Positions 14,835 through 35,856 of a DNA stretch of 64,000 bases are shown one piece after another. The notes under the pieces are model-generated. The model did no database searches. It saw only the letters and a program-made list of their open reading frames with translations, and was not told where the DNA came from. Each line of letters opens with the position of its first letter. The first letter of the stretch is position 1. The stretch comes from Gammaproteobacteria bacterium (lineage in GTDB: Bacteria; Pseudomonadota; Gammaproteobacteria; Burkholderiales; SG8-41), in NCBI GenBank assembly GCA_041483135.1, contig JBGPFE010000009.1, forward strand, positions 54,629 through 118,628. Direction: 5' to 3'. The position numbers and the translations under genes are program-made.

Positions 14835-14870
14835 AGCCAAAGGCCGGCTGCTGACAAACGACCACGCTGG

Positions 14871-16244
14871 TCAGCGCTCCCGCCACGCCTCGTGCACGGT
14901 CTTCTGGATCGGGGACAGCAGGTATTCGATCACCGAGCGGTTGCCGAGATGGATCTCCGCCGCGACCTGCATGCCGGGGGTGAGCTTGTAGCGCAGGCCC
15001 TGCGCTTCGAGCTGCGATGAATTCAATGCCACGAGCGCGCGGTAGCTGAGGCTGGCTGGAGCATTCGCGCTGTCGGGCGGCGGCTTGCGGTCGCTGCTGG
15101 CATCCGCGTTCTTGTCGGTCGCGTCGTACGTGACATGACGCACCACTCCGTCGAGCATGCCGTACTTCTGGAACGGGTACGCTTCGAGCTTGATCTTGAC
15201 CTTCTGGTCGACTTCGACGAAGCCGGAATCGATGTTGCTGACCCAGACTTCCGCAAGCAAAGGCTCGTTGTGCGGCACCAGCGTCAGCAGCACGGTACCG
15301 GGAGATACCACCGTGCCCTGCGTATGCGTGGCGAGGTCCTTGACGATTCCGGCCTGCGGCGCCTTCAGCTCCAGCAAACCATGCTTGTATGTATTCTTCG
15401 CAAGCTCCTGGTTTAGCTTGCTGTACTGCGACTCGGCGTCGATCCGTTCGTTGTGCAACTGCTGCTGATAGTTGGAAGTGATCTGCGCGATGCGCTTGCT
15501 CGACTGCGCGATGGTCGCCTTGAGCGACTCGACGTTCTGGGTCTGCGCCTGCAGTTCCTGCTCGGTTTCGATGCGGCTGCGCGTGCGGTCGAGCGCCATC
15601 AGCTTGCCCGCGAACCCTTCCTTGGCGAGCTGGTTCCAGCCTTTTTCCTGCTCCTGGTAGATCGGCAGCGTCTGCTTGAGCTTGCTCTGCACTTCGATCG
15701 CGCTATTGAGATCGTGCTGCACTTTCGAAAGCGCCGCGCGTTCGGTGTCGAGCGCGTCCTGGTACGCCTGGCGGTGAGACCGAAACTGCGCGTCGACCTG
15801 CGCGTAAAGCGCCACGTCATCGCCTGCTTTTTTGGCGAGCGACACACCCTTGAGTTCCGCATCGATACGGCGCAGCTGCAGCACCCTCAACTGATAGTCG
15901 TTGTCGAGCACTTTGCGGTCCGCCACCGAAATGCTGGTGTCCATGCGCATGAGCGCCTGGCCGGCGACGACCTCGTCGCCTTCCTTCACCAGGATCTCCT
16001 TCACGACGCCCGAGTCCGCCGGCTGCACAACCTTGAGAAAGCTCTGCGGCACGAGCTTGCCCTGCGCGACCGCGACGATATCGAGCCTGCCGAACGTGGC
16101 CCAGACCAGCAACACTGCGAACAATGCCAGCAGCGCGTACAGAATCAGCCGCGGCAACGGCGAAGGCGGCGCGTGCTGCGCCTGCAGGATCGCGGGCGCG
16201 AAATCGAGCGCGTCGGCAGACAACTGCCGGATCCGGTTGATCAT
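14871..16244 (-). CDS. hlyD: HlyD-family T1SS membrane-fusion protein (HlyD type)
   Basis: Start trimmed to MINRIRQLSADALDFAPAILQAQHAPPSPLPRLILYALLALFAVLLVW.... Compare E. coli HlyD EFLPAHLELIETPVSRRPR followed by a TM helix. Long coiled coil. C-terminal LGNRSVIEYLLSPIQK. ATGA overlap with the vapC stop. Confidence 0.9.
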   Translation of the reverse strand: MINRIRQLSADALDFAPAILQAQHAPPSPLPRLILYALLALFAVLLVWATFGRLDIVAVAQGKLVPQSFLKVVQPADSGVVKEILVKEGDEVVAGQALMRMDTSISVADRKVLDNDYQLRVLQLRRIDAELKGVSLAKKAGDDVALYAQVDAQFRSHRQAYQDALDTERAALSKVQHDLNSAIEVQSKLKQTLPIYQEQEKGWNQLAKEGFAGKLMALDRTRSRIETEQELQAQTQNVESLKATIAQSSKRIAQITSNYQQQLHNERIDAESQYSKLNQELAKNTYKHGLLELKAPQAGIVKDLATHTQGTVVSPGTVLLTLVPHNEPLLAEVWVSNIDSGFVEVDQKVKIKLEAYPFQKYGMLDGVVRHVTYDATDKNADASSDRKPPPDSANAPASLSYRALVALNSSQLEAQGLRYKLTPGMQVAAEIHLGNRSVIEYLLSPIQKTVHEAWRER

Positions 16245-16621
16245 CGAATCAGTTCCAGATTGAAACGTTTTTTCAGCTTTGACCAGGCCCTGTCCGCCGT
16301 CAGAATGCGTCCTTTCAGATATTTGCCGGTCGCCAGGCACACGCGGTCCCCAAGCGACAGGCCGGCGCCGCGAATTCGTTCAAGACAACCCGCCTCGAAG
16401 GCGAGATCGGAATCGAGATCGAGCAGCTTCAGGCGCATGGCAAGTATCGAATTCCGCAGGGCGATGGTGTCAATCTCCCTGCGCGCAGCAAACCCAATGA
16501 CCTCGGCCAGATTCACGACGTTCATGTACGCCTGCTCGTCCATCGCGGCGGCGACTCTATCCGCCCCGTCCTCGCGCAGGATCAGCGCGAGCAACGCGGA
16601 CGCGTCGAGCACGAATATCAT
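16241..16621 (-). CDS. vapC: PIN-domain VapC toxin
   Basis: 126 aa. MIFVLDASALLA..., NLAEV, GDRVCLA, LTADRAW acidic-residue pattern of PIN nucleases. ATGA overlaps at both ends (16618-16621 with vapB, 16241-16244 with hlyD). Confidence 0.88.
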   Translation of the reverse strand: MIFVLDASALLALILREDGADRVAAAMDEQAYMNVVNLAEVIGFAARREIDTIALRNSILAMRLKLLDLDSDLAFEAGCLERIRGAGLSLGDRVCLATGKYLKGRILTADRAWSKLKKRFNLELIR

Positions 16622-16881
16622 CGCTTCGCGCGCTCCCGCCGCGTCTCGGCGCGGCGTTCAGCCAGAAACTCGTCAACCAGCGATTTGCCCCGCTTGCGCC
16701 TGATCGGCGCGCACAGAGTTTGCGCCCGCGCGATCGCCGCACGGTGCGTCATCAGCCTGACCGAATCCGGCTCCAGAATCAGCACCACGTCTTCCCCGGG
16801 ATTGATCGCCAGCGACCGCCGATACTCGGCTGGAATCACCACCCGTCCATGCGGACCCATCTTGATGTGTACCCTCGGCAT
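16618..16881 (-). CDS. vapB: AbrB/SpoVT-type VapB antitoxin
   Basis: Start trimmed to ATG 16881 with a GGGAG RBS. MPRVHIKMGPHGRVVIPAEYRRSLAINPGEDVVLILE is a swapped-hairpin AbrB-like motif. Confidence 0.82.
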   Translation of the reverse strand: MPRVHIKMGPHGRVVIPAEYRRSLAINPGEDVVLILEPDSVRLMTHRAAIARAQTLCAPIRRKRGKSLVDEFLAERRAETRRERAKR

Positions 16882-16940
16882 CGTTGCGCTCCCGTGTTGA
16901 TGTGTCAATTTTTTGTTATTAGGCCATAAATATAATAATC

Positions 16941-17418: not shown

Positions 17419-17456
17419 CCCTTCACTCTTCACTCATTCACCCTTCACGTCACCTC
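17419..17456. repeat. Single array of TTCAC-containing 7/8-nt repeats
   Basis: TTCAC at 17422, 17429, 17437 and 17444, plus GTCAC at 17449. Lies between the giant gene stop and the next start. Confidence 0.7.
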
Positions 17457-20400
17457 AACCCAGTTTCACCAGCCCATCCTGCAATCCGGCGAGCGGCTGC
17501 AGGGTCTGCGGCGCGGAACCGAATTGCGCACTTGCCAATATGCTTTGCGCAGCATTAGTGGCAATGCCCGATAACGTTCCGTTCAACCCAAAGCGATACG
17601 CGAGATCGCCGCCGATAGCTTCAGTATCGCTGCCCGCGAGATGCGCATCGAGCAACGCGTTCATTACCGACCAGTGATTGGCATTGCTTGACGAAGCCGC
17701 CCGCGCCTGGTCGAATTTCTGCACGATCTTGCTGAAGTCGAACAGCTCGACTTTGTTGTCGCGCAACGTATCGGGGCCGCCCGGCGCGAAATCGCTCATC
17801 GCCTCGGCGATCACCTGCAGATTGAGCACGCTGCGGTTGTTCGCGTTCGCGTACCAATCCTTGAGCGTGACGTCTTCGTTGATCGCGGTCTGAAGCACAA
17901 GGCTGTTGCCCTGCTTGCTCAGGAACAGGTCGGCGTAGCGGATGCCGCCGCCGAGCGAGACCGTGTTGTCCTGCCCTGTGCTCGCCGCGACCGTGTCGTG
18001 GCCGTCGCCATGGTTGAACGCGATTACATCGGCGCCCGCGCCGGTCGTGATCGTGTCGTTGCCGGCTCCGCCAATGAACATCTCGTTGCCGGCGCCACCG
18101 GTCAGCGTGTCGTTGCCGTCTTTCGCGTAGAGCAGGTTGTTGCCGAATGCATCGGTCAATGTATCGTTGCCGTCATCGCCTTCGAGCAGGTCGTTGCCAC
18201 GGTCGCCGTTAAGCGCATCGTTGCCGCCGCCGCCGGCAAGGAAATCGTTACCGGCGCCGCCGAACAAGTCGTCGTTACCAAACCCGCCGAGCAGCACGTC
18301 ATCGCCGCTCGAAGCCCACAGCGCATCGTTGCCGTCGCCGCCGTCGAGCGTAACGTCACCGTAGGCGTAGTCCTGACTCGTCAGATCGATCACATCGTTG
18401 CCGGCGCCGCCTTCGATGCGCTCGATGCCGGAAATCCGCGGCACGCGGGTGCCGCCGGGGAATGCGCTGTAGCTATCGTCCAGCGCCAATACGTCATCGC
18501 CGCTCGTGCCGGTGAGCGTATCGTTGCCGCTGCCGCCATTGAATACATCGAACGAACGGTTCTTGCCGGCGATCACCGCGGTTTTATTGGTACTCGGATT
18601 TCCCGGGCTGCCGTCGTTGCGCGCGACAAACCCGCCATTCCATTTGCCGTCCGCATAGTAGATAAACCCATCGTCGCCGCCATTGCCGTTCAGCAGGTCC
18701 GTATTGCCAAGCCCATTCAGCGTGTCGTTGCCGGGCCCGCCGTTCAGCACATCGGGGTTCGGCGTGCCGACGAGGTTCAGGCCGCTACCCGTGCCGACCG
18801 TGACGTTGAATACATCGGATGCGCTCAGGCTGCCGCTATCAGTTGCGCCGACCTTGATCGATAACACCCCCGCGTCGGCGGCTGCCGGTGTACCGCTGAA
18901 GGTACGGGATGCAGCGTTAAATGCCAGCCACGACGGCAGCGGCGAGCCATCGGCCGACTGCGCGCTGTAGCTGAGCGTGTCGCCAATGTCGACGTCGGTA
19001 AACGTGTTGGCTGCGAACTGGAAGGCGAATGACGATCCCGCCGTGGCCGTCTGGTCCGCGATGGCATTCGAGAGCACCGGCGCATCGTTGGTGTTGGCGA
19101 CGCTGATATCGAAGGTATCGAACACCGAGGCGCCCGCAGTATCGGTCGCGGTGACCTTGATGCTGACGGCGCCAACGTCCGCATTCAGTGGCGTGCCGGT
19201 AAAAATGCGGGTTGCGGCATTGAACGTCAACCATGACGGCAGCGCACTGCCGTTGGCGCGCATGGCCGTATAGCCGAGTGTGTCGCCCACGTCCACGTCC
19301 GCGAACGTGTTGTCCGGAATCGTGAAACTGAATGCCGCGTCCTCGGTTGCTGCCTGGTCTGCAATAGCAGTGGCCAAAATCGGCGCATCGTTCGAATTGG
19401 CGACCGCCACGTCAAAAGTATCGAACGCGGAGGCGCCTGCCGTATCGGTTGCGGTCACCTTGACGCTTACCGTCCCGACGTCGGGATTCAACGGCGTGCC
19501 GGTAAAAGTATGGGTTGCGGCATTGAACGTCAGCCACGACGGCAGCGCACTGCCGTCTGCACGGTCGGCACCGTATGTCAGCGTGTCTCCCACATCAATA
19601 TCGGCGAACGTATTGGCTGGCAGCGTAAAGCTGAACACGCTGTCCTCGGTCGCCGCCTGATCCTCAATTGCGGTAGCCAGCATCGGCGCGTCGTTGGTGT
19701 TGGCTATCGTCACGTCAAACGTGTCGAACGCCGACGCGCCAGCTATGTCGGTTGCCGTGACCTTGATGCTCGCCGTGCCGACATCGGCGTTCAGCGGCGT
19801 TCCTGAGAACGTGCGCGTCGCTGCGTCGAACCCGAGCCAGTCCGGCAATGCCGATCCATCCACCGCCACCGCGCTGTAAGTCAAGGTATCGCCAACATCT
19901 ACATCGCTGAACGTGTTGGCAGGCAGCGTGAAGCTGAATGCGCTGTCCTCGCTTGCCACCTGATCCGCCATCGCATTGGCGAGAATTGGCGCGTTGTTGG
20001 TGTTGATGACTGTTAAATCGAACATATCAGTAGCGTTGAGGCTGCCTCCATCAGTCGCCGTGAGTTTGACACTGAACGTGCCGACGTCGTTGTTACCAGG
20101 CGTGCCGGTAAACGTTTCTGTCTCTGGATTAAACGCAAGCCATGCCGGGAGCGTTGAATCGTCGCTGAGCGAAACGGACAGCGTAAGCGTGTCACCAGCA
20201 TCCACGTCGGTAAACGTACCGACAGGCACAGTGAAATTGAATTGTGCATCCTCCAGCGCGCTCTGGTCGGAAACTGGGTTCGCCAACACCGGTTGGTGAT
20301 TTAAGGCAGTGCTGGTCACTGTTAGCTGGAACGTATCGGGTATCACGTACGTCCCAATGCTGGCGCCCGATACCTTCTCAGCAGCAGTAACCTTGACATC

Positions 20401-23400
20401 GATCGTACCGACATCCGTGCTGCCGGGCGTGCCGCCGAACGTCCGAGAATTACCGTCGAAGGTCAACCAACCGGGAAGCGCGCTACCGTCGGTCAGGCTG
20501 GCGGCATAGGCGTAGTCATGGCTGGAATCGAGGACATCAAAAAATGCGGTTGTCGAAAACTGTAGATTGAATGCGCTGCCTTGTGCGACGGTTTGATTAC
20601 CGATAGGGTCGGGTAGTGTGTGCAAGACGCCGGATGCGGCGCCGTTTGCCAATTGCTCGAGAGTTGTCGAATCCCAATACGAATGATCGGCAAATTGAAC
20701 ACGCTCTACGGCATAGCCAGAAAGCGGAAACCAGCGAATTGCCAGTTGGTCCTGAGTACCGTTGATTCCTATGTATATGTTGTCGTCGTCCCGCGTGATA
20801 GCCAGATCGGTTGAGGAGATGCCATCGCCCAACGCAATCTTGTCGAAATTCCCAAGATTCAGATCAAAATCGATAATAGAATCCTGGCCTGACCCGCGAC
20901 CGAATACATACGTGTCATTGCCCGCGTTCCCGCTTAACTTGTCGTTGCCGGCTCCACCATCCAGCACATCGTTCCCGTCCCATCCAAACAAGCTATCGTC
21001 GCCGCCGGATCCATTGACAATATCGTTACTGAATGTTCCGTAAAAGACATCAGAGCCGCTTGTAGGCAGAAACGCCTTGGCGTACAGATTATTGACTTGC
21101 CAGACTGTCCCGTCGCTGAATCGGACCTGCTCGACGTTATCTCCCTCGAAATCATTCAATGAAACTGAGAACCAGTGATCCAATATGACCTGATCGCTCG
21201 TGCCGCTGAGTGTAAGGAACAGCCGTCCCGCATTTGTCGAGGGCGGGTCGGCGGAAACAATGATATCTGCCGGTGCGATAGTAGCGCCGAACTCAATCGT
21301 GTCGACGCCTCCTGAACTATCACCCCTGTCGGAAGTAAAGCTGCGCGCGGTAAGGCCTGAAGGCGGTGCTTCGACGACCAGATCGTTCCCGAATCCGCGA
21401 TCGAAGCGGTAGACATCGTCGCCGAGGCCGCCATAGAGATCGTCGTTGCCGGGACCGCCTATCAAAATATCGTTGCCATCTCCCCCGTACAGGAAGTCAA
21501 CTCCATTCCCACCGGCAACGATATCGTTGCCCGCATCGGCAGCAATGCGATCGTTGCCGTCGTCCCCGGATAAATTGTCGTCACCATCACGGCCAGAAAT
21601 GTAGTCGTTTCCTGCGAGTCCCGCGATGACATCAGAGCTCGTAGTTCCGGAGAGAAAATCATTGCTAGCGCTGCCGATAGTATTCATGCGATTGGCCAGA
21701 TCGCTGAAGGACCAGCTAGTCCCGTCGCTGAATTGGACTGACGCTGGAATTGCAATGCTCGAAAGTCCACCCAGCGATGCGAGCCCGTTCTTGATCGTGA
21801 TCCGATCGGCGCCGGCCCCCACGATAATATTCAGATCGCCACTAGCGAAGCTATTGAATGTCGAAGTGATCGTTGCGGTCAGTTGGACATCTGCCGGAAG
21901 GATTCCGGTACCGAAAAAGATGCTGTTAGAACTGGCGGCGGTGCCGGTGCCACTACTATCCTGGTAGGTGTCCTGGCCGAAGCCGGGATTAAATATGTAG
22001 CGGTCATCACCGTCTCCGCCACGTAGCGTGTCATTGCCTGAGTTGCCCGTAATTGTGTCGTTGCCCGAGGCACCGGTTATTGTGTCATTGCCTGCCAGCC
22101 CGTCAATGACGGCATCCTTAAATGACGACGTAGTGGAAGCATTTATCGTGTCATTCCCGTTCGTTCCCGTGATGTAGTTTCTGTAATAGTCGGCAAGGTC
22201 CCACACTGTTCCATCGGAGAATTCAGCTCGCTCAACCCGATTTGCGCCAGGACTCGCAACCAGGGAAAGACGGTCGCTGCTACCGGCAAGATTGAAAAAA
22301 ACATGCGAGGCATCACCACTAACCGATATATCTTGCGGCCGAACACCCGCTGCGAAACGGATGGTATCTGTGTCGGTGAAGAATACCCCTTGACTGTACA
22401 GTTCATCTATTGTGTCGCGCCCCGAACCGTACCCAAATAAATAAATGTCATCGCCCTGCTCTCCCCAGAGCGTATCATCACCGGCTCCGCCATCGATTAT
22501 GTCGTTCCCGTCGCCGGCAAAACACTGATCGTTGCCGGCCTCGCCAAACAGAACATCATCCCCGGCCTCGCCCGTAAGCATATCGTTGCCGCTGCCACCG
22601 CTCAGTGTGTCATCACCATCCCCGCCATATAACCGGTCAATACCCGAGCCCGCCGCAAGTACATCGTTACCGTCGTTTCCCTGAATCGTGTAATCGCCGC
22701 CATCGACAGTGATCGAGTCGTCCGTTGATAGCCCATATAGATAGGTCCGGCCACTGATAATCAAAGGTCCGCTTGCTTGACGAATGTAATCCAGATCCCA
22801 TACCGTTCCATCGCTGAAATCCAAGGTGAAGCCGTCATCGCCGCGAAAGAGCGCGTCATACAGCATGATCTGATCTGTTGTGCCTTGGTGGTACAACGTG
22901 ATGACTTGATTGACGTCCGGGGCCCCGACAATAATATCGGCGGGCGCAATCCCGGCACCAAACACCAGCTTGTCCTGCCCTAACCCGCCGCCGAAATAAT
23001 CGTCGCTAATAATATCCTGCCCCCAACCCGCCTCGAAGAGCATTGTAGTGACCCCCGCGGCACCGCTGAGGAAGTCATTCCCCGCGCCGCCTTCGAGATA
23101 GTCATCTCCTGCACCGCCGATGAGAGTATCGTCGCCGCCGTCACCGTAGAGCAGATCATTCCCGTCGCCGCCTTTGAGCGTGTCGTTTGCGCTGCCTCCA
23201 AATAGTGTGTCATTCCCAGCTTGCCCGAGCAGCCGATTACTTTTGCTATCGACGGCAAGCACATCATCGGACGGTGTTCCCGAAATCGCTCCTCCGGATT
23301 CCAGCAATGCGTATTCGAGACGTTGTGCCACATCGTCTGGCGTGAGAACTGTGCCGTCGGCAAATACGAACCGCGAGATAGAAACATTCTTTGAAAATGT

Positions 23401-26400
23401 CGGATCGAACCACGACGTGATATTCAGTTCGTCATCAGTGCCGCGTATCCTGATACGTAATGAATAAGGGTCCACATTGGAATCGGACGTAGTCAATTCA
23501 TTACGCGTGAACATCACGTCATCAGGAGACACGCCAGTTTTGAAAATTACGGCGTCTTTCGTATAGTTCACACCGTTCGAAGTGCTGTCGATAACATCAT
23601 GGCCTGAACCCAACCCAAAGAGATACGTATTGGCGCCGGTGAAGCCGACTAACTTGTCGTCGCCTGGTCCGCCATCCAGGATATCGTCGCCACGGTCACC
23701 TTTGAGCGTGTCATTGCCGTTGCCGCCAAGAAGAAAGTCATCACCGATCCCGCCCACGAGTGTGTCGTTACCATCACCACCTTTGACTACATCGTTACCG
23801 CCGTTGCCGAAAATACTGTCATCCCCTCCCCCGCCATCCAGTCGGTCATCGCCCGCCTGCCCTATCATGAAGTCGGTGCCGCTGGTCGCGTTTTGCGCGG
23901 CAAACCACTTTTGCGTCAGGACTTGCTCGTTCCAGACCGTCCCGTCGGCGAAACGGACTTCCCTGATTGAATAGATCGGTGTGGCTACACGGGGCGGCGT
24001 TTCGATTTCGCCATACCAACTGAGAATCTTCAGCTGATCTGCGCCGCCGTTGAGTGAAAGAATCAGATTGTCCCGACCAGTAGCTGAATACGAGGGATCG
24101 ACGTCAGTAATAACAGTGACATCCGACGGTTGAACGCCCGGCAGCATCTGCACCACATTTCGTATAGTCCCGTAACCCGCGTTGCCGGATCCAGTGCTGA
24201 AATAGTCAAAAACCTGAACGGTGTCATGACCATAACCGTTGCCGAAAACTATCGTGTCGTTACCTCGGGAGCCGGAACTCACACCATCAAAAATGGTGTC
24301 GTCTCCGGGGCCACCGTCATGGGTATCTGCCCCCGGCGAACCGTTCAACTGGTCGTTGCCGTCACCGCCGCGAAGTGTACCCGTGCCGAAAAGTCGGTCG
24401 TCGCCATCGCCGCCCAGCAAAACGTTGATGCCTTGCAAATCGCTCAGGAGATCGTTTCCAGGCCCGCCATCCAGCGTGTCATTGCCGGTACTGTCGGAAA
24501 GGGTATCGTCGCCGCCCATGCCGGACAGAACGTTGTCGCTTGCATTGCCGCTGATAGTGTTATTTACCGCGTTGCCGGTGCCGACGCGCGCCGTGCCTGT
24601 AAGCGTCAATTTCTCAATTTCTCCCGACAATACATAATCACTGCTCGCTTGCACCTCATCGGTGCCCTCGCCTGGCAGTTCGGTCGCTACGTCGCTAGGA
24701 TTGTCGACTTTATAGATATCATTGCCGGGTCCGCCCACCATGGTGTCGATACCCGTTCCCCCGTCGAGAGTATCGTTCCCGCCTTGTCCTTCGAGTATGT
24801 CGTCGCCGGCCCCACCGGTAAGCGTATTCGGGTTCGCATTCCCGATGATGTGATTATTGTCAGCGCCGCCGCTCCCTGCCGTTGCCGACCCCGTAAGAAT
24901 CAAATCTTCGACGTTGGCCGACAACGCGAAGCTAACGCCGGCTTGTACGGTGTCATGACCTTCGTTCGCATTTTCGATTACGGTGTCGAAACCATTGTCG
25001 ACGATGTAATAATCATCGCCTCGACCTCCGCGCATCTGATCGAATCCGGTCCCGCCATCGAGCCGATCGTTGCCGTCCAGACCGTTCAGGATATCGTTCC
25101 CACCGAGACCCTCGATTTGATCGTCAGCTGGCGAACCCGTTAGCGTGTCATTGCCCGCCGTACCCTGGACGACTGTCAGCGCCTGGGCCAATAACGCGCT
25201 TCCGCTTAGCGTTGTCCCATCGGCAAACTCGTAGCTCTCGATTTGGATGCCGTCGGAAATATACAAACTATCACTGGTGCCGTAAGAAACCCTAAGCCAG
25301 GTTGCCCCTAATCCTTTTGTGGCGACAAGAGAGTTTGCAGTAATTCCCGGGCCAAAAACAACGCGGTCATTGCCGCCTGCGTCATCGGTGAGTTGGTCAT
25401 TGCCATCCCCGCTATTGAACAAGTAGGTATCGTCGCCGCTCTCCCCAATCAAAACATCATTGCCCGTACCGCCGATGAGCGTGTCATCGCCGGCTCGCGA
25501 CTGAATGAAGTCATTGCCGCCTTTGGCGTCTATGAAATCGGGATCGTTGACGCCGAACAGCACATCATCGTTACTGGTGCCGACGACGTTAAATCCAAGA
25601 CTCAGCAATTCTTCGTAATCAAGGCGCGTGCCGTCGACGAATTCGAAGAACTCTATCGTGTGTGGTCCGTGGACATCGTTTGGATCGACAGTTTCAAGAT
25701 GAATGGCATCGCCCTGATCGCCGACGTGGATGAGCAGCGACCCCCCTCCCAGCGACAGAGAATCCGGTGTAATGCCCTCTCCGAAAATCAGCGTATTGGG
25801 CGCACCGGAAGTGGACATGTCAGTAATGTGATCGACACCGTCGCCCAGATTGAACAGGTAGGTGTCGTTGCCGTCGCCACCGGTCAGCGTGTCGTTGCCG
25901 CGGCCTCCCGAGAACGTATCGTTGCCGCCGTTGCCGGTGAGCGTGTCGTCGGCCGTGCCGCCCATCAGATTGTCATCGCCAGCGGTGCCGGACAGATTCT
26001 GTGGCGTGATCAGGGTGTGGCCGAGGAACTGCGCCCAGGTCTCGACACTGCCGTCGGCGTATTCGACCGACTCGATGTTGCCCTGCAAGCCATCCTTGAC
26101 CGCGATGGTGTCGGTCGCAGTATATTGAATGCCTAAATACTGCGGATTTTCTTCTGGAACGAACGTGATAATGCTGGATGCCGATATGCCATCGCCGAAT
26201 TTGATGCGATCGACACCCCCCTCGTCTTCCAGCGTGTCGTTGCCATCACTCGCGTTGAAGCTATAGACATCGTCGCCAACTCCGCCCAACAGCGCATCGT
26301 TGCCGGAGTCACCCGCAAGCTGGTCGTTGCCATCTCCACCTTCGAGCTGATCGTCTCCTGTCCCTCCGAATAAAGTATCGTTGCCGCCGAATCCCTGGAG

Positions 26401-29400
26401 TACGTCGTTGCCCGCTTCCCCATCGAGGTAGTCGTCACCCTGGTAGGCAACCGGGATGTTGTCGCCGTCCCCGGCCATCTGGTCATCGCCATCACCACCG
26501 AAGAGGGTGTCGCTGCCGCCCTGACCGAGCAGGATGTCGTTGCCCGTGCCGCCATCGAGATAATCGTCACCGTGAAATTGGGCGTCGAGCAAATTACTGT
26601 CACCAGACAGCTGATCGTTGCCGTCGCCGCCGAAGAGGGTATCGTCGCCGCCGTCGCCGAAGAGCTTGTCGTCCCCCGCTTCGCCGTCGAGATAATCGTC
26701 GCCGTGAAATTGCTGGGCGAGCAGATCGTGGTCCCCGGAAAGCTCGTCGTTGCCGTCGCCACCGAACAATGTGTCCGACCCGCCCTGGCCGAACAGAAGA
26801 TCATCGCCGCCTTCGCCGTTGAGATAGTCCGCGCCGTCCGCCTGTGGATCGGAGTAGACAGCGCTGCTGACATCGTACGTCGCGGTGTCGCCGAGCAAGA
26901 CATCGTTGCCATCGCCGCCGAACAGCGTGTCGGCATCTTCCTGACCGACGAGCCGGTCGACGCCATCGCCGCCCAGCAGCAGATCGTCACCGGCGCCGGC
27001 CCAGATCACATCATCGCCGGCTCCGCCATCCAGCACATCGCTTTCATCCCCCGCCGCGCGCGGATCGCCGCCAAAGCCCGTGAACGAATAGAGCGGCGCA
27101 TCCGGCGTGCCCGATTGGATCACCGTCCAGCCCTGGCCTTCAGCTACGACGTTCCCGGTGTGGATGCCGCCAACGCCAACGGCAGTGTACCCATCCCCCC
27201 CAAACAGAAAATCGTTGCCGTCGCCGCCATTGATTACGTCGGAACCGGCGCCGCCAGCGGCAACATCGTTGCCTTCGTCACCGGTCAGGTAGTCATCATC
27301 TGCGCCACCTTGCAGCGCATCATTGTCGAGACCGCCATAGAGCTCGTCGTTGCCGCCGGAGGCGATCAGGATGTCGTTGCCTTCTTCGCCATATAGGTAT
27401 TGGTCACCATCATCGTTGGTGATGATGTCGTCGCCAAGTCCACCCCAGCCTTCGGCCTGCGCAAGGCTTACGCTGATGCGATCATTGCCACCAAAGCCGA
27501 ATATTTTTTGCAGGAATGAGGTGCTGGTAAGAGTGTCCGCGCCTTCCGTGCCGTCAAGTTCCGTTTTTTGAAGGGGATCGGGAAACAAAAGATGGATGCC
27601 GAGTTCGCCATCATGAAAATTCTGAACTACAACTTTTTCCGGGCTGCCGTCCTTGGTGATCGTCAATATTCCAGGGGAGTTTACTTTGCCCGTAAATTGA
27701 TACTGAAATCCGTTGCTATCCTGAAACTTCTTCGGGTCGTCGCCGGGCACCGCACTCTTGTCTCCGGTCAAGTCCTGGCCCTCAACAACGATCTTGCCCT
27801 GACCATCCCCCGCGCTCTGAGAGTTCAGCAATCCGGCGTAATCGATAATTTCATCGCTGTCCGAGCTGCGCTCGACAATATAAGTATCGAAGCCGCTGCC
27901 GCCCCGTATTACATCCTTACCCGATCCACCAGTGAGCGTGTCGTCACCCGCGCCGCCATCCAGGGTGTCGAAGCCACGCCCACCCACCAGCGTGTCAGAG
28001 CCGGTGCCTCCCGATATCGAGTCATAACCGTCATCGCCCTCGATGTAATCGTCACCGAATCCACCGCTGATCGTGTCTCCACCTCCGCCACCATACATGT
28101 GGTCATTCGCAATTCCACCGTTGATCGTTTCAGCGTTATCGCTACCAAAGATGAAACGATCGACTCCGATATTAGGACCGAAGGTGATTTTTCGTGGTAT
28201 GTCCTCAAAGTGAGCCTGGACTTGCGCTGAAAGCGCTCCGTCTACGCGGTTATAGCGAATATAGTTTGCCAACATCGTGGCTCGATCTTCGAGCCATTTA
28301 TCTGTAAGAGTGCCGCTGTCGTTGTTTACATCGTAAAGATTAAGTTCACCGCTCGCGTTGTGCTGCGTATAGATCGTGTTGTCGCCAACAATGGCAAATG
28401 GGTTAAGTTCCCTGAGCGCATAGCGGTACCCAAGCGCTTCCGAGCCTTGGGCGATATTGGAAAGATCGGTGGCATTGGTGCCAACAAGACTATCCAAGAA
28501 CAACGACGGGTTGGCTTTAACTAGATTTTCTAGCTCAAGCAATTTGTCAAAATATTTCCTGCGACCATTAATGTCGCCAGCACCGATTCCAGACAAACTA
28601 GATGCGTCTACCAACGGTAAGTCGGTTAAGCCTGTTGTCCGGTTTCCGAAGACTTTGTAGAGCGCATCAACCAGCTTTTCCTGGGTATCCTTGGCCTGGC
28701 GCGAGGCCGCCTCGAAAAGCGCGGTCATGTCTGAAAGTCCAAGCGCGTTGTTCATCCGGTACAACAGCGCTTGCAGCGCGAGGCTGTCCATAAACGGTTC
28801 AATCAGGTGGCTGTTGGCCTCGGTTGCAACCGGCTGCCGTGGACTTAAAGCTGTATCGTTGGTAATAACGCTTGATACTATGTTTATATCATCTCCGGGC
28901 GCCTCATCCTCGCTCTCGAAGTTGTGAATCGGAAGTCCATCAAACGTTGACGTTGGCGGCGTACCCAGGAAACGCCCGAAAAGGTCCACCAACTCATCGG
29001 TAAGTTTAAACGGTGCTGTGCCAATGGCAGTCGCAATCCCAGCAACGGGACTGCGGGAAAGAACTCCCACAAGGGTTCCCAGAATGACACTCGAATATTC
29101 TGGGTCAAACCCGGGAGCGTTGTATGTGTAAGCATCCTTCACTAAATCTGGAAACAATCTCGCGGCGAGTGCCGCGAGGTGTCCGCCCAAGCTGTGCCCA
29201 GTGACAACGATTTGTTCTCCAGAACCAATAAGATTCAACCCTTGCCCGGTGAAGTTTGGAGTGAAATACAAATACGCTGCACCGCCTCGCAATGGAATGC
29301 TCGGTAGGATGGAAGGTTGGGTTGTAGATACATTCCATTGAAGCTGAAGAACGTCCGTCTTAGTCTCAGGTGCTCGTAACCGCAAAATGAAATTGACCAT

Positions 29401-29823
29401 CGATACCGCTTGCGATAGCGCAAGACCGATGAAGCCTATCTGAGCGAGATCAGCAGCAAATAGGTCGAGCCCCAGTTGGGTCGTCGGTTCGGTTCCTCGA
29501 AATGCAAGCACTTTTTCACTCGTTCCACCAGATTGACGTTGGAAAAGGATTGCAGCAAAACCAGTTCCGTCATTTCCGTAGTAACCATTACGATTAGGGC
29601 CGAAGTCTGGGATGGCCCAGACGGGCTGGCTGCTGGCTTTGGCTTGGTCGGAGTCCTTGTCGAATGTCTGGTTCGCTAGCGCTGATGGAATGCGTTTCTG
29701 ATCGTCTGCATTTGCAAGCCTAGCAACTGTCGCGCCATCGAGAGGTTGTCCATCCAGAATCACGTAGGCAGCGGTGGCGAGCTTGGAAAACTCGTAGTAA
29801 TCAAGAATATTGGGCATGGCCAT
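17455..29823 (-). CDS. Giant (4122 aa) T1SS-type protein: N-terminal class-3-lipase-like alpha/beta hydrolase, RTX blocks, haemolysin-type Ca-binding-related modules, six cadherin-like repeats
   Basis: GHSLG nucleophile elbow (Ser211, nt 29191-29193) followed by YTYNAPGF. Many GGxGxD runs. About 11 modules of type Y.F..G.G.D.I.D......I.F..GI...D. Repeats NDAP(I/V)L...D.D.GDTL.Y......LP.WL.F....TF.GTP. No signal peptide. The likely true start is the second ATG (29817), 6 nt after AGGAGG. Confidence 0.93.
18790..20615 (-). repeat. Six tandem about 300-bp coding repeats (cadherin-like/dystroglycan-type domains)
   Basis: For example, attgaacgtca(a/g)cca(t/c)gacggcagcgcactgcc recurs at 19219 and 19519 (period 300). 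The protein repeats are about 100 aa each, and the first is divergent. Confidence 0.9.
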
Positions 29824-29827
29824 CCTC

Positions 29828-30556
29828 CTAACGTGGGCTAGCGGGTACTAATACATAGTGGTAAAGCAAATACCGAAGTTCAGGCGGCTTCGGTGCAGTT
29901 CCCTTGCAGGTAACCGCTCCACTCCCAAAAAATCGAACCCACAGACTTTCTACCCAACCCAGATAACGAGTGTAATGAATGTCACGGGCAATAACTTCAC
30001 CGGTCTGCGAATCAACTACGATGTCTTCTGTCTTCTCTAGTTTTAAGCCGACGGGTACCTCCTGACGTGGATCGGCAAACCTGTAGTGATACCTTGCCGT
30101 AGGATGGTCCAGGACGGTAATTCGCCATGTCCCGTCTGGATACTTTTCAAGGTGAGATATCTTTCCAGGCGCACTGCCAGATACACTCGTGTTCCTCTCC
30201 CTGAACCGGAATCCAGCTTTTTCATATTCGGCAACAAGCTGCTTATCCGTCACAATCTCCGCTTTGCTCCAGCCAGTAGTCGTGGCATCGTAATAGCCAT
30301 CCACCTCCACCTTGCGTGTAACATGCACCCCAGCGTCCTCGCAAAGCTTAGAGAACTGCCAAGCAATCCAGAACTCATCAGCATAGGGAAGGATCAACAG
30401 AATCAGCGCTAATGTACCGATCACCGATCCGCGCCACGGTTTTGCTGCCCATGCCAGCCACAACGGTCGCAATACGAATTTGTAGACAACAACCCATAAC
30501 GCTCCGGCAATGGCCAAGCCAATGGGATAGATTTGCAGAGCCTGCCAATAACTCAT
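29828..30556 (-). CDS. Hypothetical two-TM membrane protein
   Basis: 242 aa. TM helices [21 protein letters not shown] and [15 protein letters not shown], then a soluble domain of about 170 aa with no motif I recognise. Its TAG stop lies inside the RBS of the giant gene. Confidence 0.75.
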
Positions 30557-30582: not shown

Positions 30583-31517
30583 GGGGTCAGGTCTTGAATC
30601 TTGAATCATGCGATCCCTCCCGTTTGATGACCTTGCTCACCGATGAATAATGAAGCCCAAGATAGGCCGCGATCGCCGCTTGCGAGTAGCCATGGCGCAT
30701 TGCGGCTTCGACGATTGCGCGATTTCGCTGAGGACGTCCATTCAATACTTTCACCGTGAGAATCCCTCCCAGGCTGGGCCGGCCAAGAAAGCGCTGTTCG
30801 CGCCGCATCTCTCGCAGGCCGTGGCGGGGACGCTTCAATTTGGCGATGAACGCGGCACTTCCCAGGATGACCTGGGCTTCCAGCCCCTTCCATGGGCTGG
30901 GAGCCTTGATCCCCTCAGCTACGAATGCCCGATAGCGCTTCTGCGCAGCCGACTGATGCCTTCCGAATTGCCCGAGTATCCAATCGCAGGTCAGATAGCC
31001 GGGCGCAGGAGACAGGCCGGCGGTTGCACGATAGCTGCTCCATTGGTAGTCCTGCGCCCTTCCCACCATGCGCGCTCGCACGGGATTGAGTACGACGTAG
31101 CGGCAGAGTTCCAGAAGATAGCTGTCGCGATCCACCACGATCGCCTTGAATCGCCCCTGGAAAACATGCCCGACGCGATGATGCCGGCGATTAAACCTCT
31201 GGGTGTAGATCCCATTGAGCTGGCGCATGCCGGCACTCAAATTCGCCTCGGTGGTCTCGATCATGAGATGGTAGTGGTTGCCCATTAAGCAGTAGGCGTG
31301 AAGCAGCCAGTTAAATCGCGCGATCGTCTGCTCCAGCACGGACAGGAATTCGCCCCGATCGGCATCATCTTCGAAGATCTTCCTACGCGCATTCCCACGT
31401 GCCGTTACGTGATACACGGCTCCCGGAAACTCGATTCGAAGCGGCCTGACCATTCTTAGCGTTCCTTCGAATCAGCTCCCAAACTCACCATTAATTCAAG
31501 ATTCAAGACCTGACCCC
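30583..31517 (-). mobile_element. RAYT unit: Y1 transposase gene bracketed by perfect 24-bp inverted repeats
   Basis: GGGGTCAGGTCTTGAATCTTGAAT at 30583-30606. Its exact reverse complement is at 31494-31517. Confidence 0.8.
30587..31453 (-). CDS. REP-associated tyrosine transposase (IS200/Y1 HUH family) with C-terminal HTH
   Basis: 288 aa. GAVYHVTARGN, HUH motif GNHYHLMIE, Tyr motif RYVVLNPVRARMV. C-terminal GYSQAAIAAYLGLHYSSVSKVI resembles a DnaA-C-like HTH. Confidence 0.85.
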   Translation of the reverse strand: MVRPLRIEFPGAVYHVTARGNARRKIFEDDADRGEFLSVLEQTIARFNWLLHAYCLMGNHYHLMIETTEANLSAGMRQLNGIYTQRFNRRHHRVGHVFQGRFKAIVVDRDSYLLELCRYVVLNPVRARMVGRAQDYQWSSYRATAGLSPAPGYLTCDWILGQFGRHQSAAQKRYRAFVAEGIKAPSPWKGLEAQVILGSAAFIAKLKRPRHGLREMRREQRFLGRPSLGGILTVKVLNGRPQRNRAIVEAAMRHGYSQAAIAAYLGLHYSSVSKVIKREGSHDSRFKT

Positions 31518-31528
31518 TTTAGTATTGT

Positions 31529-32140
31529 TCATAGGGTCTTCAACATCGTGCATGCGTCGAGAGTGCGGTCTGAAAGCGTTGATTCAAGTGGCCGATTGAC
31601 TTCCTGGTTGTAGGACATAACCAAATGCTTCTTCTCGTTCTTGACCAGTCCACTGAGATCTTCCCAGCTGTCTCTGCCCCACGGGTTCGTTAGTAAATTG
31701 GCTTTCCCACCCTTAGGAAATTCATCCTTTTGGATCTGTGTCCAAGCATTTCCATCCCAACGAAAAAACACTGAGCTTGAGGGTGGATCGTTATATTTCT
31801 TGCACAAGTCGCGACTCCGAATATTTACCACCAAGTAGTCCTTACCTTCTCGCATCTCAAGGGCGAGCGGATGCTCCTGACCATTGCCTTTCCAAGACAC
31901 TCCATCAGGAAAAGTGATTTCCCATGAACGATATCCACCTCGGGGCGCAACTGGGAATCCGGATTTTTCCGCAACTGCAGCTCTCTTGACGATGACAATC
32001 TCTCCAGTCGCAAGTTGAACCTCCTCTCTCCATTCCGCGCGGTCAACCTTGCTGCATCCGCCCACAATAGGTACGAGGCATAACCAGCAACAGAGAAACG
32101 TCAGTGCGGTAGCTATGGGGTTAGGCTTGGCTAATTGCAT
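31529..32140 (-). CDS. Hypothetical lipoprotein
   Basis: Start trimmed to MQLAKPNPIATALTFLCCWLCLVPIVGGCSK (lipobox VGG|C). The mature part of about 175 aa has no recognisable motif. A/T-richer than its surroundings by eye. Confidence 0.7.
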   Translation of the reverse strand: MQLAKPNPIATALTFLCCWLCLVPIVGGCSKVDRAEWREEVQLATGEIVIVKRAAVAEKSGFPVAPRGGYRSWEITFPDGVSWKGNGQEHPLALEMREGKDYLVVNIRSRDLCKKYNDPPSSSVFFRWDGNAWTQIQKDEFPKGGKANLLTNPWGRDSWEDLSGLVKNEKKHLVMSYNQEVNRPLESTLSDRTLDACTMLKTL

Positions 32141-32153
32141 AACCCGGCGTAAG

Positions 32154-32169
32154 GGGGTCAGGTCTTGAA
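32154..32169. repeat. Third, partial copy of the REP-like repeat
   Basis: GGGGTCAGGTCTTGAA, same orientation as the 30583 copy. Together with 31494-31517 it brackets the lipoprotein gene. Confidence 0.7.
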
Positions 32170-32216
32170 ATATCACTTTTATCATTTCGATTGCCCCGCT
32201 TGATTGATCACTTTGC

Positions 32217-34349
32217 TCATTGTGTTTCTCCCAGCCGCACCACTTCATCGACCTTCAATCCTTTCGGCAACTGATGCGCGATGAACAGCATCGACACCTT
32301 CCCCTTGAGCTGATTTACGGTCTTTGCAAAACTCTCTGCGGTGGGCTCATCCAGACTGCTAGTCGCCTCGTCGAATATCAGTATCTTCGGCCGCTTGAGT
32401 AAGGCGCGCGCGATTGCGATGCGCTGTTTCTGTCCTCCTGAAAGTCCCACACCGTGCTCTCCGATCACGGTCTGGTAACCCTCGGGCAATTTCTCGATCG
32501 TCTCGTGTATCTCCGCGAGCTTGCATGCCTGGATCACCTGCTCGAAGGTCGCGTGCGGGTTGGCCAGGACCAGGTTGTCGTAGATCGTGCCTGAGAAAAG
32601 TATCGTCTCCTGCGGCACAACGCCGTAATGCTGTCGCAACTCGTTTGCGGAAAAATGACGGATGTCGCGGTCATCGATCAGAATCGCGCCGTCGTTCGGC
32701 AGGTAAAAACCCTGCATGAGCTTGGCGAGCGTGCTCTTGCCCGAGCCCGACGGACCCATCAGCGCGATGCATCGCCCTGGCTCTATCGTGAGATTCAAGT
32801 CGCGGTAAAGGAAAGGCAGGTTCTCGGCGTAGCGGAAGCTCAGGCCCTTGATCTCGAGCTTGCCTCTGCCCCCGCCTTCGCGTGCGGGAACCATCGAATA
32901 CGGCTCGGCCGGCGCGTTCATCACGTCACCGATGCGTTTCACTGCGACGCTCGCGTTCTGAAACTCCTGCCACAGGCTCACCATGCGCAGGAGCGGCCCC
33001 GACAAGCGGCTGGCGAACATCTGGAACGCGACCAGCATGCCGATCGTCATGTCAGTCGAGTTCATAACGATCCACGCGCCGACGCACAGTACGGTCAGCG
33101 TCACGAGCTGGTCGAGCATATTGGCGACCGAGTTGGCCGTGTTCGCGATCTGGCGCGTGTTGAACCCCGCGGCAAGGTACGCGGACAGGTATTCCCCGAA
33201 CCGGTCTTTCAACTGCGGCTCCATCTGCAATGACTTGACCGTCTCCATGCCGGCGACGTACTCGGTGAGAAACGCCTGGTTGCGCGCGCCGAGCAGGAAT
33301 TGCTGGTTCAATCGTTCGCGCAGCAGCGGGGTAGCAAAGAAACTGATCGCGGCGATACAGAGCAGGATCGCGAGCACGAGCAGCGTCAAGAGCCAGCTGT
33401 AATAGAACATGACGCCGAGGAAGATGAAGAGGAACGGAATGTCGAGGCAGAGCGTCACCGCCGCGCCGCTGATGAATTCGCGGATCGTCTCGACCCCATG
33501 CACTCGCGCGATCAGCACGCCGGTCGGCCGGTGCTCGAAAAACCGCGGCGGCAGCTTGAACAGGTGCTCGAACACCTGCAGGCCGAGCACGGCGTCGATG
33601 CGGTTTCCCGTATGCAGCACCAGGTATTGCCGCACCCAGGTCATGATGGTGCTGAAAAGCATGAATACAACGAGCCCGATGCCGATCACGGCCAGAGTGC
33701 TCGCCGTGTGATGCACGATGACCTTGTCGATCACGACCTGGGTGAAGACGGGGGTTGCCAGCGCCATCAGCTGGATCGCGAGCGAGGCGAGCAGCACGTC
33801 GCGCCAGATCTCCCTGTGCTTGAGCAGTTCGGGGATGAACCACCGGAAGCCGAATTCAGGCTTCTCCTGCAGCAGCGGATCGCCTTCGACGGCGCCTTTC
33901 GAGCTCGCCTGGAACAGGATGACCTGCCCCGAGTACTGCGCTGCGAATTCGGCCAGGGCAGCCTCGAATGGATTCTTGCTCTTCTCGTCGAAGAGCAGCA
34001 CACGCACGTCGTTCGCTTTCAGGACGAGCGCGAGACGATACGGCCGCGGCGCTTCGGATCGGGCCGCATCACCCGGGTCGTTCGCGGCGGAATCAGGGTG
34101 CGGCGCGGAAGCCGGCTTCAGCACCGCCAGGCACGGCAACGGCAGGTTCGCGAGGTCGGCCACCGAAGCCTGCTTGATGCCCGCTTTCAGCCCCAGCGCT
34201 TCAGCGGCCTGCTGCAATGAATTGAGGCTGTACGGCGGAGCGACCTGCTGCAGCACGAGATTGGGGGCAAACGGGACGCGCTGCAGATGACACATCCCCT
34301 GGAGTCCCCAGACGAAGGTGTCTGTCGCGAATAGCAGATTGCTATCCAA
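32217..34349 (-). CDS. hlyB: HlyB-type T1SS ABC transporter with N-terminal C39-like domain (CLD)
   Basis: 710 aa. TTG start after GGGAGG. The N-terminus MDSNLLFATDTFVWGLQGM aligns with E. coli HlyB MDSCHKIDYGLYALEIL and has no Cys at the catalytic position. Walker A GPSGSGKST, LSGGQKQR, ILIFDEA. Confidence 0.92.
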   Translation of the reverse strand: MDSNLLFATDTFVWGLQGMCHLQRVPFAPNLVLQQVAPPYSLNSLQQAAEALGLKAGIKQASVADLANLPLPCLAVLKPASAPHPDSAANDPGDAARSEAPRPYRLALVLKANDVRVLLFDEKSKNPFEAALAEFAAQYSGQVILFQASSKGAVEGDPLLQEKPEFGFRWFIPELLKHREIWRDVLLASLAIQLMALATPVFTQVVIDKVIVHHTASTLAVIGIGLVVFMLFSTIMTWVRQYLVLHTGNRIDAVLGLQVFEHLFKLPPRFFEHRPTGVLIARVHGVETIREFISGAAVTLCLDIPFLFIFLGVMFYYSWLLTLLVLAILLCIAAISFFATPLLRERLNQQFLLGARNQAFLTEYVAGMETVKSLQMEPQLKDRFGEYLSAYLAAGFNTRQIANTANSVANMLDQLVTLTVLCVGAWIVMNSTDMTIGMLVAFQMFASRLSGPLLRMVSLWQEFQNASVAVKRIGDVMNAPAEPYSMVPAREGGGRGKLEIKGLSFRYAENLPFLYRDLNLTIEPGRCIALMGPSGSGKSTLAKLMQGFYLPNDGAILIDDRDIRHFSANELRQHYGVVPQETILFSGTIYDNLVLANPHATFEQVIQACKLAEIHETIEKLPEGYQTVIGEHGVGLSGGQKQRIAIARALLKRPKILIFDEATSSLDEPTAESFAKTVNQLKGKVSMLFIAHQLPKGLKVDEVVRLGETQ

Positions 34350-34459
34350 CGCGTTCCTCCCGCGTACCGCTGAAGCTTTTCTTATTGATTACTGCTTCGG
34401 ATCTCGGCGGCCCCTCGAAGCCCTGAGGCTTCGTCCTATTTCCTCACTCCACCGCCTGT

Positions 34460-34510
34460 TTTATATTTAAGCCAACTAGTTCACGGATAGCAAGTCTATC
34501 AAAACGATAG
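34460..34510 (-). promoter_or_regulatory. Candidate hlyB promoter core plus GATAG/CTATC repeat operator
   Basis: Minus-strand TATAAA (34460-34465), 111 nt upstream of the hlyB start. GATAG-N5-CTATC-N5-GATAG at 34486-34510 covers the -35 region. No good -35 hexamer. Confidence 0.35.
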
Positions 34511-35441: not shown

Positions 35442-35458
35442 GGCGGCACTCCGTTGGC

Positions 35459-35743: not shown

Positions 35744-35856
35744 GCGCCCCCTCCCCCGATACGCAACATGTAACTAGACATCGTTTTAGCATTAGAATCA
35801 AGGTTGTAATCTCGTGTCAAATCTGTCGATTTGATAGATTTTCTCTAAGCGGTTGA

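Follow-up and report, generated by a model that had tools for sequence, protein, structure and literature searches.

What does a small membrane protein do when its gene stands directly ahead of the gene for a giant, lipase-bearing RTX protein? The question is raised by a 64,000-nucleotide (nt) stretch of DNA from a Gammaproteobacteria bacterium (contig JBGPFE010000009.1), which is hereafter called the window; positions are counted along it, and all of its genes located below lie on the minus strand. Here, a gene for a 242-amino-acid (aa) putative inner-membrane protein (29828..30556, ATG start) precedes a giant gene whose product begins with a lipase-like domain, the head, and lies among genes of a type I secretion system (T1SS). 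We refer to the 242-aa protein and its homologues as the family. A preliminary description of the gene, made from the letters of the window, had proposed its product as an envelope-located functional partner of the lipase, either an immunity protein or a secretion accessory. We report that the family gene and the head are paired in relatives, that the two genes meet in an overlapping junction, and that family genes also occur in tandem pairs, as orphan copies and as mosaics. With moderate confidence, we read the 242-aa protein as the cognate, inner-membrane-anchored and periplasm-facing immunity (inhibitor) protein of a T1SS-exported lipase head.

Pairing of the family gene with a lipase-like head

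Loci were fetched by means of one conserved peptide pattern of the family, which samples the closer relatives and which gave 22 loci from genomes and 51 from metagenomes, and to these were added the contigs of individual homologues (single loci are cited by their L numbers). Open reading frames (ORFs) in all six frames were scanned with hidden Markov models of the family and of the head. This forward set comprised 70 distinct near-full-length family genes, 62 of which had at least 300 nt of downstream DNA, and a head ORF was located directly 3' of the family gene in 44 of the 62. The distance from the family stop codon to the projected first residue of the head was −12 to +20 nt in 42 of these 44 cases and +59 nt in the other two. 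When the search was reversed and made with the head alone, each of six heads looked up on long contigs had a family gene directly upstream (6/6), including the most distant heads, of 28–31% identity. A partner gene that is immediately adjacent and kept across relatives, as is characteristic of toxin-immunity loci, was thereby found in the forward (44/62) as well as in the reverse (6/6) search, and the co-occurrence with lipase-RTX genes elsewhere, the absence of which would by the preliminary description have counted against its proposal, is strong in both directions. The ORFs downstream of family genes ranged from giants of more than 3000 aa (L011, L020, L026, L049) through lipase-RTX proteins of 900–1700 aa (L016, L021, L043; those of L016 measure about 900 aa) to the head alone, with 397–449 aa (L018, L086, L087, L088). 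Since the head-only genes are likewise preceded by a family gene, it is the head, and not the RTX stalk or the transporter, that is the partner of the family gene.

The junction between the two genes reads ...CCA CGT TAG GAG GAT GGC CAT GCC C... on the minus strand. The TAG stop codon of the family gene (29830-29828) runs into AGGAGG, which serves the giant gene as ribosome-binding site (29829-29824), so that two bases are common to both within 29824..29830, much as the preliminary description had read it. The same description had set the giant gene's start at the ATG at 29823, 4 nt past the family stop. This gap is correct for the first ATG of the giant ORF, which abuts AGGAGG without a spacer, but the next ATG in frame, at 29817, lies 6 nt from AGGAGG and 10 nt from the family stop and gives a protein beginning MPNILDYY...; homologous heads begin M-x-(I/L)-(L/I)-D-Y-Y, one or two residues ahead of the conserved ILDYY. 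Because of this normal spacer and the match to the starts of homologous heads, the true start of the giant gene is probably 29817 and not 29823, and the tight coupling of the two genes stands with either start.

The giant protein (17455..29823) has 4122 aa and is composed, according to Pfam, of the head followed by RTX blocks, HCBP_related, He_PIG and Big_9 immunoglobulin (Ig)-like repeats and a C-terminal RTX region. Its head, a lipase/phospholipase-like alpha/beta-hydrolase domain recognised from motifs, profiles and an AlphaFold2 model, covers aa 1-419 (28567..29823, or up to 29817 with the likelier start). G209-H-S211-L-G-G, D312 and H339 were invariant in 26 heads, and Ser211, Asp312 and His339 plausibly constitute the catalytic triad. 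Compared with the PDB, the head profile found class-3 lipases (1DT3, E 0.006), feruloyl esterase A and a type VI secretion system (T6SS) lipase effector, 7UBZ_B (E 0.02). The Pfam model Lipase_3 (PF01764) aligned to the nucleophile elbow only, with a score of 22.3 against a cutoff of 22, and head homologues bear the precomputed Pfam assignment PF26363, 'Phospholipase-like'. The AlphaFold2 model of the head had a predicted local distance difference test score (pLDDT) of 88.6 and a predicted template-modelling score (pTM) of 0.91, and matched alpha/beta hydrolases at a probability >0.9, among them the membrane phospholipase PlaF. The alpha/beta-hydrolase fold, the GxSxG elbow and a candidate Ser-Asp-His triad, by which class-3 lipases and 'Phospholipase-like' proteins are recognised, are therefore all present, and the head is probably a conserved and active alpha/beta hydrolase of the lipase/phospholipase type.

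A family of predicted inner-membrane proteins

An indexed search with the 242-aa protein returned 36 homologues at E≤1e-15, which were 33–69% identical to it, about 185–260 aa long and without exception unnamed, together with one further match that was identical in sequence to the query. An exhaustive profile search extended the family to 593 representative clusters at E≤1e-3, 258 of them at E≤1e-10. Eleven residues were invariant in the alignment of the 36 homologues (E61, F68, C72, A75, G76, G87, R155, D182, R197, G211 and C217), and the end of the second transmembrane (TM) helix carries the signature P-[WY]-A-[DE]-E-x-W-I-A-W-x-F-x-x-x-C-x-D-A-G, followed by the further motifs PTARYHY and VVDSxTGE. 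In view of the 36 homologues, the 593 clusters and the 11 invariant residues, the ORF at 29828..30556 is not a chance ORF. None of the longer family members that were scanned had a fused extra domain. The carriers are mostly Betaproteobacteria, and those with names include Azospira, Sulfuritalea, Sulfurisoma, Dechloromonas, Azonexus, Thiobacillaceae, Zoogloeaceae and Nitrosomonadales.

That the protein holds no recognised motif had been remarked before, and it remained so in our searches: it matched 0 families in Pfam, NCBIfam and PADLOC, its comparison with PDB sequences gave noise only (best E 0.26), and the family profile against the PDB was likewise empty. An AlphaFold2 model built from the 36-sequence alignment (pLDDT 91.4, pTM 0.84) comprised two N-terminal helices (H11-35 and H42-72) and then a mainly beta domain of about 180 aa, which agrees with the two N-terminal TM helices and the C-terminal domain of the preliminary description. 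When this model was compared with the PDB and BFVD by Foldseek, nothing was found below E 1e-3. The top neighbours were non-significant, with TM-scores below 0.33: one was PelC (E 0.03), the other, at E 6e-3 and a probability of 0.63, a viral 'LPS-assembly protein'. As both share an LptE-like fold, they are kept as a faint lead from the modelled structure. The family and its fold are without a characterised relative and previously uncharacterised.

The topology of the protein can be approached from the distribution of charges in the family. On average, the short N-terminus has 0.31 K/R and 0.11 D/E per sequence, the loop between the helices 4.25 K/R and 0.19 D/E, and the first 18 residues past the second helix 1.44 K/R and 3.61 D/E. 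By the positive-inside rule these counts point to an N-out, loop-in, C-out arrangement. The AlphaFold2 helices and the charge counts together delimit a membrane hairpin (30383..30529) made up of TM1 at about aa 10-27, a K/R-rich and presumptively cytoplasmic loop, and TM2 at about aa 43-58. What follows, from about aa 59 to aa 242 (29831..30382), is a predicted periplasmic domain that holds, by alignment, an interfacial helix with the signature, the PTARYHY and VVDSxTGE motifs, and a variable tail after about aa 150. This C-terminal domain has exactly two cysteines in 35 of the 36 family sequences, both of them invariant (C72 and C217), which would fit one periplasmic disulfide. The charge counts and the cysteine pattern are thus consistent with a location in the envelope and, with the co-occurrence described above (44/62 and 6/6), lend support to the earlier claim of an envelope-located partner of the head. 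As the protein has no cytoplasmic domain, a signalling role is unlikely.

Arrays, orphan copies and the case for immunity

Family genes are frequently found in more than one copy, with and without a lipase. In Sulfurisoma sediminicola BSN1 (L016), four consecutive family-then-lipase-RTX pairs are positioned behind one ABC gene, and in the two pairs whose family copy is divergent (E 1e-8 and 4e-5) the head is divergent too (29% identity). Four family copies within 11 kb (weakest E 1e-19) are scattered among TctC, asparaginase, major facilitator superfamily and insertion sequence genes in L001, which contains no lipase. In L030, a family gene with a 164-aa head fragment lies past the end of the giant gene and is followed by three further family copies, and solitary copies are present in L015, L050, L051, L060 and L064. 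In L007 and L086, the intact pair has upstream of it a family gene with a head truncated near codon 80, and head fragments after a family gene were found in L007, L086, L036 and L048. Orphans, truncated toxin fragments and multiple pairs per locus, all of which are hallmarks of toxin-immunity systems, are accordingly seen in this family.

Mosaic copies were found as well. The family proteins P0002, P0003 and P0007 agree fully (100% identity) over residues 1-150 and are 46–54% identical thereafter, a pattern which comes from one lineage and to which repeat-rich assemblies could contribute; it would place a breakpoint inside the family gene, the 3' half of which would move with the 5' end of the head. 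Ahead of the 5' end of the giant gene, L007 (1-2621), L036, L037 and L086 (4987-9848) contain tandem units, each consisting of a Y1_Tnp gene, a family gene and the first ~84 head codons. At the DNA level, the units of L007, L036 and L037 are nearly identical in the 5' half of the family gene and in head codons 43-84 and differ in the 3' half of the family gene and in head codons 1-42; codons 43-84 are 96.7% identical between units where codons 1-42 are divergent, again in one lineage and with a possible contribution from repeat assembly. The pattern has the look of a replacement of cassettes at the giant gene's toxin end. Divergence is also uneven across the loci shared with the window, in which the ABC transporter is 58–63% identical to that of the window and the family protein and head are 32–45% identical. 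Immunity is further favoured by a head that looks like an active enzyme and by a partner for which neither a cytoplasmic domain, nor an added domain in the longer members scanned, nor any enzyme-like match was seen.

If the 242-aa protein is an immunity protein, the TM hairpin would hold its disulfide-bonded domain of ~180 aa at the periplasmic face of the inner membrane, where this domain would bind the head and block its hydrolase activity. The heads so inhibited would be those arriving from sister cells and, if it becomes exposed to the periplasm late in a type I secretion that proceeds C-terminus first, the cell's own. The conserved half of the domain, with the interfacial helix and the PTARYHY and VVDSxTGE motifs, may contact invariant parts of the head, and the variable C-terminal third may set specificity. 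Through the overlapping stop codon and Shine-Dalgarno sequence at the junction, the immunity gene would be translated just ahead of the toxin gene.

Several points weigh against this reading, the most serious of them being the meeting place of inhibitor and head, which is not obvious because classical type I secretion leads from the cytoplasm to the outside without a periplasmic intermediate. Two options may be considered: an incoming head from a sister cell could, like the Tle lipases of the T6SS, act from the periplasmic side, or the N-terminal head, the last part to exit, could be transiently or stably exposed in the periplasm of the producer, as proposed for LapA-type retention modules. 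In its Ig-like/RTX stalk, the giant protein is closer to surface adhesins than to known antibacterial toxins, and we know of no route by which such a giant protein would enter the periplasm of a target cell. The strong conservation of the polar residues E61, R155, D182 and R197 is unusual for fast-evolving immunity proteins and could mark an enzymatic site or a binding site for the secretion machine. Many of the contigs are short and come from related metagenomes or communities, which means that the counts of pairs are not phylogenetically independent, and orphan status was judged per single contig and not per genome. A mirror-tree comparison with head distances (Spearman 0.68 for the C-terminal half of the family protein, 0.58–0.59 for other segments) discriminates weakly, and the correlation is not taken as evidence of contact, since linked genes co-vary anyway.

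The strict adjacency of the two genes and their coupled junction would also suit a protein that assists the secretion, folding or retention of the head, its periplasmic domain capturing the head as the last part leaving the transporter. This could be a steric chaperone or activator, such as Lif or, for the Tle of Enterobacter cloacae, Tli, or an inner-membrane tether comparable to the LapA-type N-terminal retention module, and its conserved half would then contact the conserved T1SS machine and its variable half the head. A T1SS ABC gene within 4 kb upstream in 10 of the 36 cases with enough DNA, the strongly conserved motifs with the membrane-interface helix, and the adhesin-like Ig/RTX stalk of the giant protein are all in keeping with such an accessory. 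We nevertheless regard it as rather unlikely, as a dedicated chaperone or tether would not be expected to occur in orphan copies and in arrays that lack a client lipase close by (L001, L030, L064, L015, L050 and L060), some genes preceded by a family gene encode the head alone, with neither RTX nor a C-terminal secretion region, Pfam and NCBIfam gave no similarity to Lif, LapG, LapD or HlyC, and the apparent mosaic exchange of 3' halves, observed in one lineage, is typical of the diversification of toxin-antidote specificity. Tandem pairs, orphans, truncated heads, mosaicism and fast divergence resemble toxin-immunity cassettes, and they would be difficult to account for if the protein were a dedicated chaperone, tether or secretion factor; it is on account of the copies and arrays without lipase, the four tandem pairs of L016 and the mosaic 3' halves that immunity is favoured over an accessory role. 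The two roles need not exclude each other, for the immunity protein Tli of E. cloacae can also activate its lipase Tle (bioRxiv 10.1101/2023.03.28.534661; PMC10294624). Should the accessory role be the true one instead, the family would represent a periplasmic component, likewise new, that acts on T1SS substrates at their N-terminus.

The invariant polar residues E61, R155, D182 and R197, the first of them at the boundary of membrane and periplasm, would fit yet another protein, a membrane-interface enzyme or lipid-binding protein that modifies or shields phospholipid or lipopolysaccharide (LPS), or prepares substrate, and that does not bind the head. The faint structural neighbours, PelC and the viral 'LPS-assembly protein', with their LptE-like lipid-handling folds, lean in the same direction, but these matches are non-significant (TM-score below 0.33). 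A modifier of the envelope would moreover have no need to co-diversify or to swap its 3' half with the adjacent head, and one copy per genome would suffice, yet L016 has four pairs; we consider such a function improbable. A family gene travelling as a passenger of a mobile Y1_Tnp cassette, of the kind known as REP-associated tyrosine transposases (RAYT; REP, repetitive extragenic palindrome), and without a functional link to the lipase, would explain why the family gene of the window has, 30 nt upstream of it, a Y1_Tnp gene flanked by a perfect 24-nt inverted repeat and why Y1_Tnp stands beside family genes and truncated heads in L007, L015, L027, L039, L074, L086 and L090. Where enough DNA is available, however, only 5 of 36 family genes have Y1_Tnp within 1.5 kb upstream and 4 of 45 have it within 1 kb downstream, whereas a head follows in 44 of 62, and the junction of family gene and head is kept to a few nucleotides with or without Y1_Tnp. 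The counts thus led us to reject the passenger as highly improbable, and they largely refute it.

Beyond the immunity protein itself, we tentatively propose, as a possibility about which we are more doubtful, that the loci represent an undescribed class of polymorphic toxins exported by type I secretion, with an N-terminal phospholipase-like toxin, a giant RTX/Ig stalk and, encoded upstream, a hairpin-anchored periplasmic immunity protein of new fold. Such a class would be a mirror image of the contact-dependent inhibition (CDI) and Rhs systems, its variable toxin tip, immunity gene and orphan cassettes lying at the 5' end, since the C-terminus has to remain the T1SS signal. Recombination would be the source of new specificities, one breakpoint lying at about codon 150 of the immunity gene and the other in a conserved part of the head, codons 43-84. 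In some lineages, a RAYT-like Y1 recombinase gene is found between the cassettes. The literature on T1SS, RTX, lipases and immunity yielded no description of such a family-head pair, and what appears to be new here is a pairing of effector and immunity protein in a T1SS/RTX setting not reported before, with the toxin module at the N-terminus. Comparative genomics supports the partnership with the head and favours immunity over an accessory role. If immunity is indeed the function, a widespread system of enzyme toxin and immunity protein would be added to type I secretion, which has so far been associated chiefly with adhesins, cytolysins and small bacteriocins, and 593 or more sequence clusters without annotation or structural relative would receive a function. 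Co-expression rescue would then offer a simple handle on the role of giant-RTX lipase heads in environmental Betaproteobacteria, and the place where a T1SS substrate meets a periplasmic protein would bear on the debated two-step behaviour of giant T1SS substrates.

Known systems and the surroundings of the locus

Functionally, the closest known systems are the T6SS Tle phospholipase effectors with their Tli immunity proteins (Tle1-5/Tli1-5), such as Tle-Tli of E. cloacae, Tle3-Tli3 of adherent-invasive Escherichia coli (AIEC) and Tle1-Tli1 of Pseudomonas aeruginosa (bioRxiv 10.1101/2023.03.28.534661; PMC9860674; PMC13133936). They have in common with the present loci a GxSxG alpha/beta-hydrolase toxin gene beside a small, envelope-located and periplasm-facing partner, as well as multiple or orphan immunity copies, and the head profile touches the effector chain 7UBZ_B (E 0.02). 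In contrast to them, the hydrolase would here leave the cell through a T1SS, as the N-terminal part of an RTX protein and outside any VgrG, PAAR or Hcp context; its antibacterial activity is putative, and its partner is anchored by a TM hairpin instead of a Sec signal or lipobox and is encoded upstream in translational coupling. The 242-aa protein could not be assigned to Tli1-Tli5: there were 0 Pfam/NCBIfam matches, the best Foldseek hit in the PDB, which holds Tli complexes, was PelC at E 0.03, and the profile search of the PDB was empty. The context is not that of Tli either, for the lipase-like neighbour is there but the secretion genes are those of a T1SS (HlyB-type ABC transporter, HlyD, RTX), and no T6SS genes were seen in the loci.

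Lipases secreted by T1SS are known from family I.3 (TliA/PML of Pseudomonas, LipA of Serratia), whose members have 480–620 aa and no known dedicated partner gene. The N-terminal GHSLGG lipase domain, the RTX repeats and the C-terminal T1SS signal are comparable, and the ~900-aa proteins of L016 share this layout, although the stalk can here exceed 3500 aa; against solved I.3 lipases the head gave no match above noise in sequence or Foldseek searches. The Lif proteins of family I.1/I.2 lipases (LipB/LipH, PF03280) are all-alpha proteins with one TM helix, encoded downstream of lipases that are type II secretion substrates, and they are not known to form orphan arrays. Like Lif, the 242-aa protein would be an inner-membrane-anchored periplasmic protein in an operon with its own specific cognate lipase, but it has no Pfam match to Lif and possesses two TM helices and a mainly beta domain. 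The cytoplasmic acyltransferase of RTX toxins, HlyC (PF02794), was also considered and rejected, as there was no Pfam match and the 242-aa protein is a membrane protein.

A precedent for antibacterial T1SS cargo with a membrane immunity protein may be seen in the contact-dependent bacteriocin CdzC/CdzD of Caulobacter, which is exported by a T1SS and has its membrane immunity protein CdzI encoded in the same locus (PMC5380434). The Cdz cargo differs in being a pair of small glycine-zipper proteins and not an enzyme on an RTX stalk, and there is no homology. The closest genetic analogy would be with cdiA-CT/cdiI of CDI and with Rhs, polymorphic toxin loci that carry orphan arrays of toxin tips and immunity genes. 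The likeness extends to cassettes of toxin domain and immunity gene, to truncated toxin fragments kept with immunity genes and to breakpoints in conserved flanks, but the polarity is inverted here, with an N-terminal variable module, an upstream immunity gene and upstream orphans. In the LapA-LapG-LapD system, a giant Ig/RTX T1SS adhesin can be retained on the periplasmic side by an N-terminal module under the control of envelope proteins. The giant protein of the window is likewise an Ig/RTX T1SS substrate with an N-terminal module, which differs from that of LapA in being a conserved hydrolase with an intact candidate triad. Neither Peptidase_C93 nor HAMP-GGDEF-EAL was present in the 242-aa protein or in the flanking ORFs scanned (12957-16340 and 30587-36887), and membership of LapG or LapD was discarded.

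Two T1SS components are encoded on either side of the pair, an ABC transporter of HlyB type (32217..34349; TIGR01846 E 1e-185, ABC_membrane and ABC_tran domains) and a membrane-fusion protein of HlyD type (14871..16340; TIGR01843, 330 bits with the cutoff at 209). The gene immediately upstream of the family gene encodes a REP-associated tyrosine transposase-like protein with a Y1_Tnp domain and a C-terminal helix-turn-helix (30587..31453; Pfam Y1_Tnp E 5e-14; NCBIfam NF047646, 80.2 against a cutoff of 80). A repeat search showed it to be bracketed by a perfect 24-nt inverted repeat, GGGGTCAGGTCTTGAATCTTGAAT, the left arm of which (30583..30606) is ~27 nt upstream of the family ATG and the right arm at 31494..31517. 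A 16-nt core of this repeat has three copies in the 64-kb window, all in this operon, against 0.03 expected; elsewhere it was found in same-organism copies and once in L075, and it is not common to related loci. The Y1 domain and the flanking inverted REP-like repeats are in agreement with a REP-associated tyrosine transposase, and a similar gene is found in the related loci L007, L011, L015, L018, L027, L039, L074, L086 and L090.

The third copy of the core (32154-32169) is just upstream of a lipoprotein-like gene with lipobox VGGC (31529..32140, the mechanical ORF reaching to 32248), so that this gene is also bracketed by an inverted pair. Its limits were set from the translation and the repeats, the likely start being a Met at ~32140, past the third core copy. 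It lies between the ABC transporter and Y1_Tnp genes, and the ORF 31529-32248 carries a lipoprotein-type signal (…LCLVPIVGGCSK). The gene had no family match in Pfam or NCBIfam, and weak homologues are found in the same type of locus in L030 (14493-15221) and L074 (3487-4203). In L089, a distant relative on a 2.67-Mb contig, a coiled-coil-like protein of ~99 aa, present in three copies of high identity, precedes each divergent family-plus-head module (2156-9149).

A second, separate T1SS set at 3-5758 consists of a HlyD-like ORF (3..1064), an ABC transporter (1043..2746) and an 888-aa RTX protein (3092..5758), and none of its ORFs has a lipase head or belongs to the family. Between the giant gene and hlyD there are a PIN/VapC-like ORF (16241..16621) and an AbrB/MazE-like ORF (16618..16908), which overlap by 4 nt and were identified by eye from their sequences. 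PIN-type toxin-antitoxin pairs were also seen beside T1SS genes in relatives, namely PhdYeFM/PIN in L009 and MazE/PIN in L086. About 1.3 kb beyond hlyD, a RES-domain protein (12957-13544; E 1e-27) is encoded, RES being the toxin part of RES-Xre toxin-antitoxin pairs.

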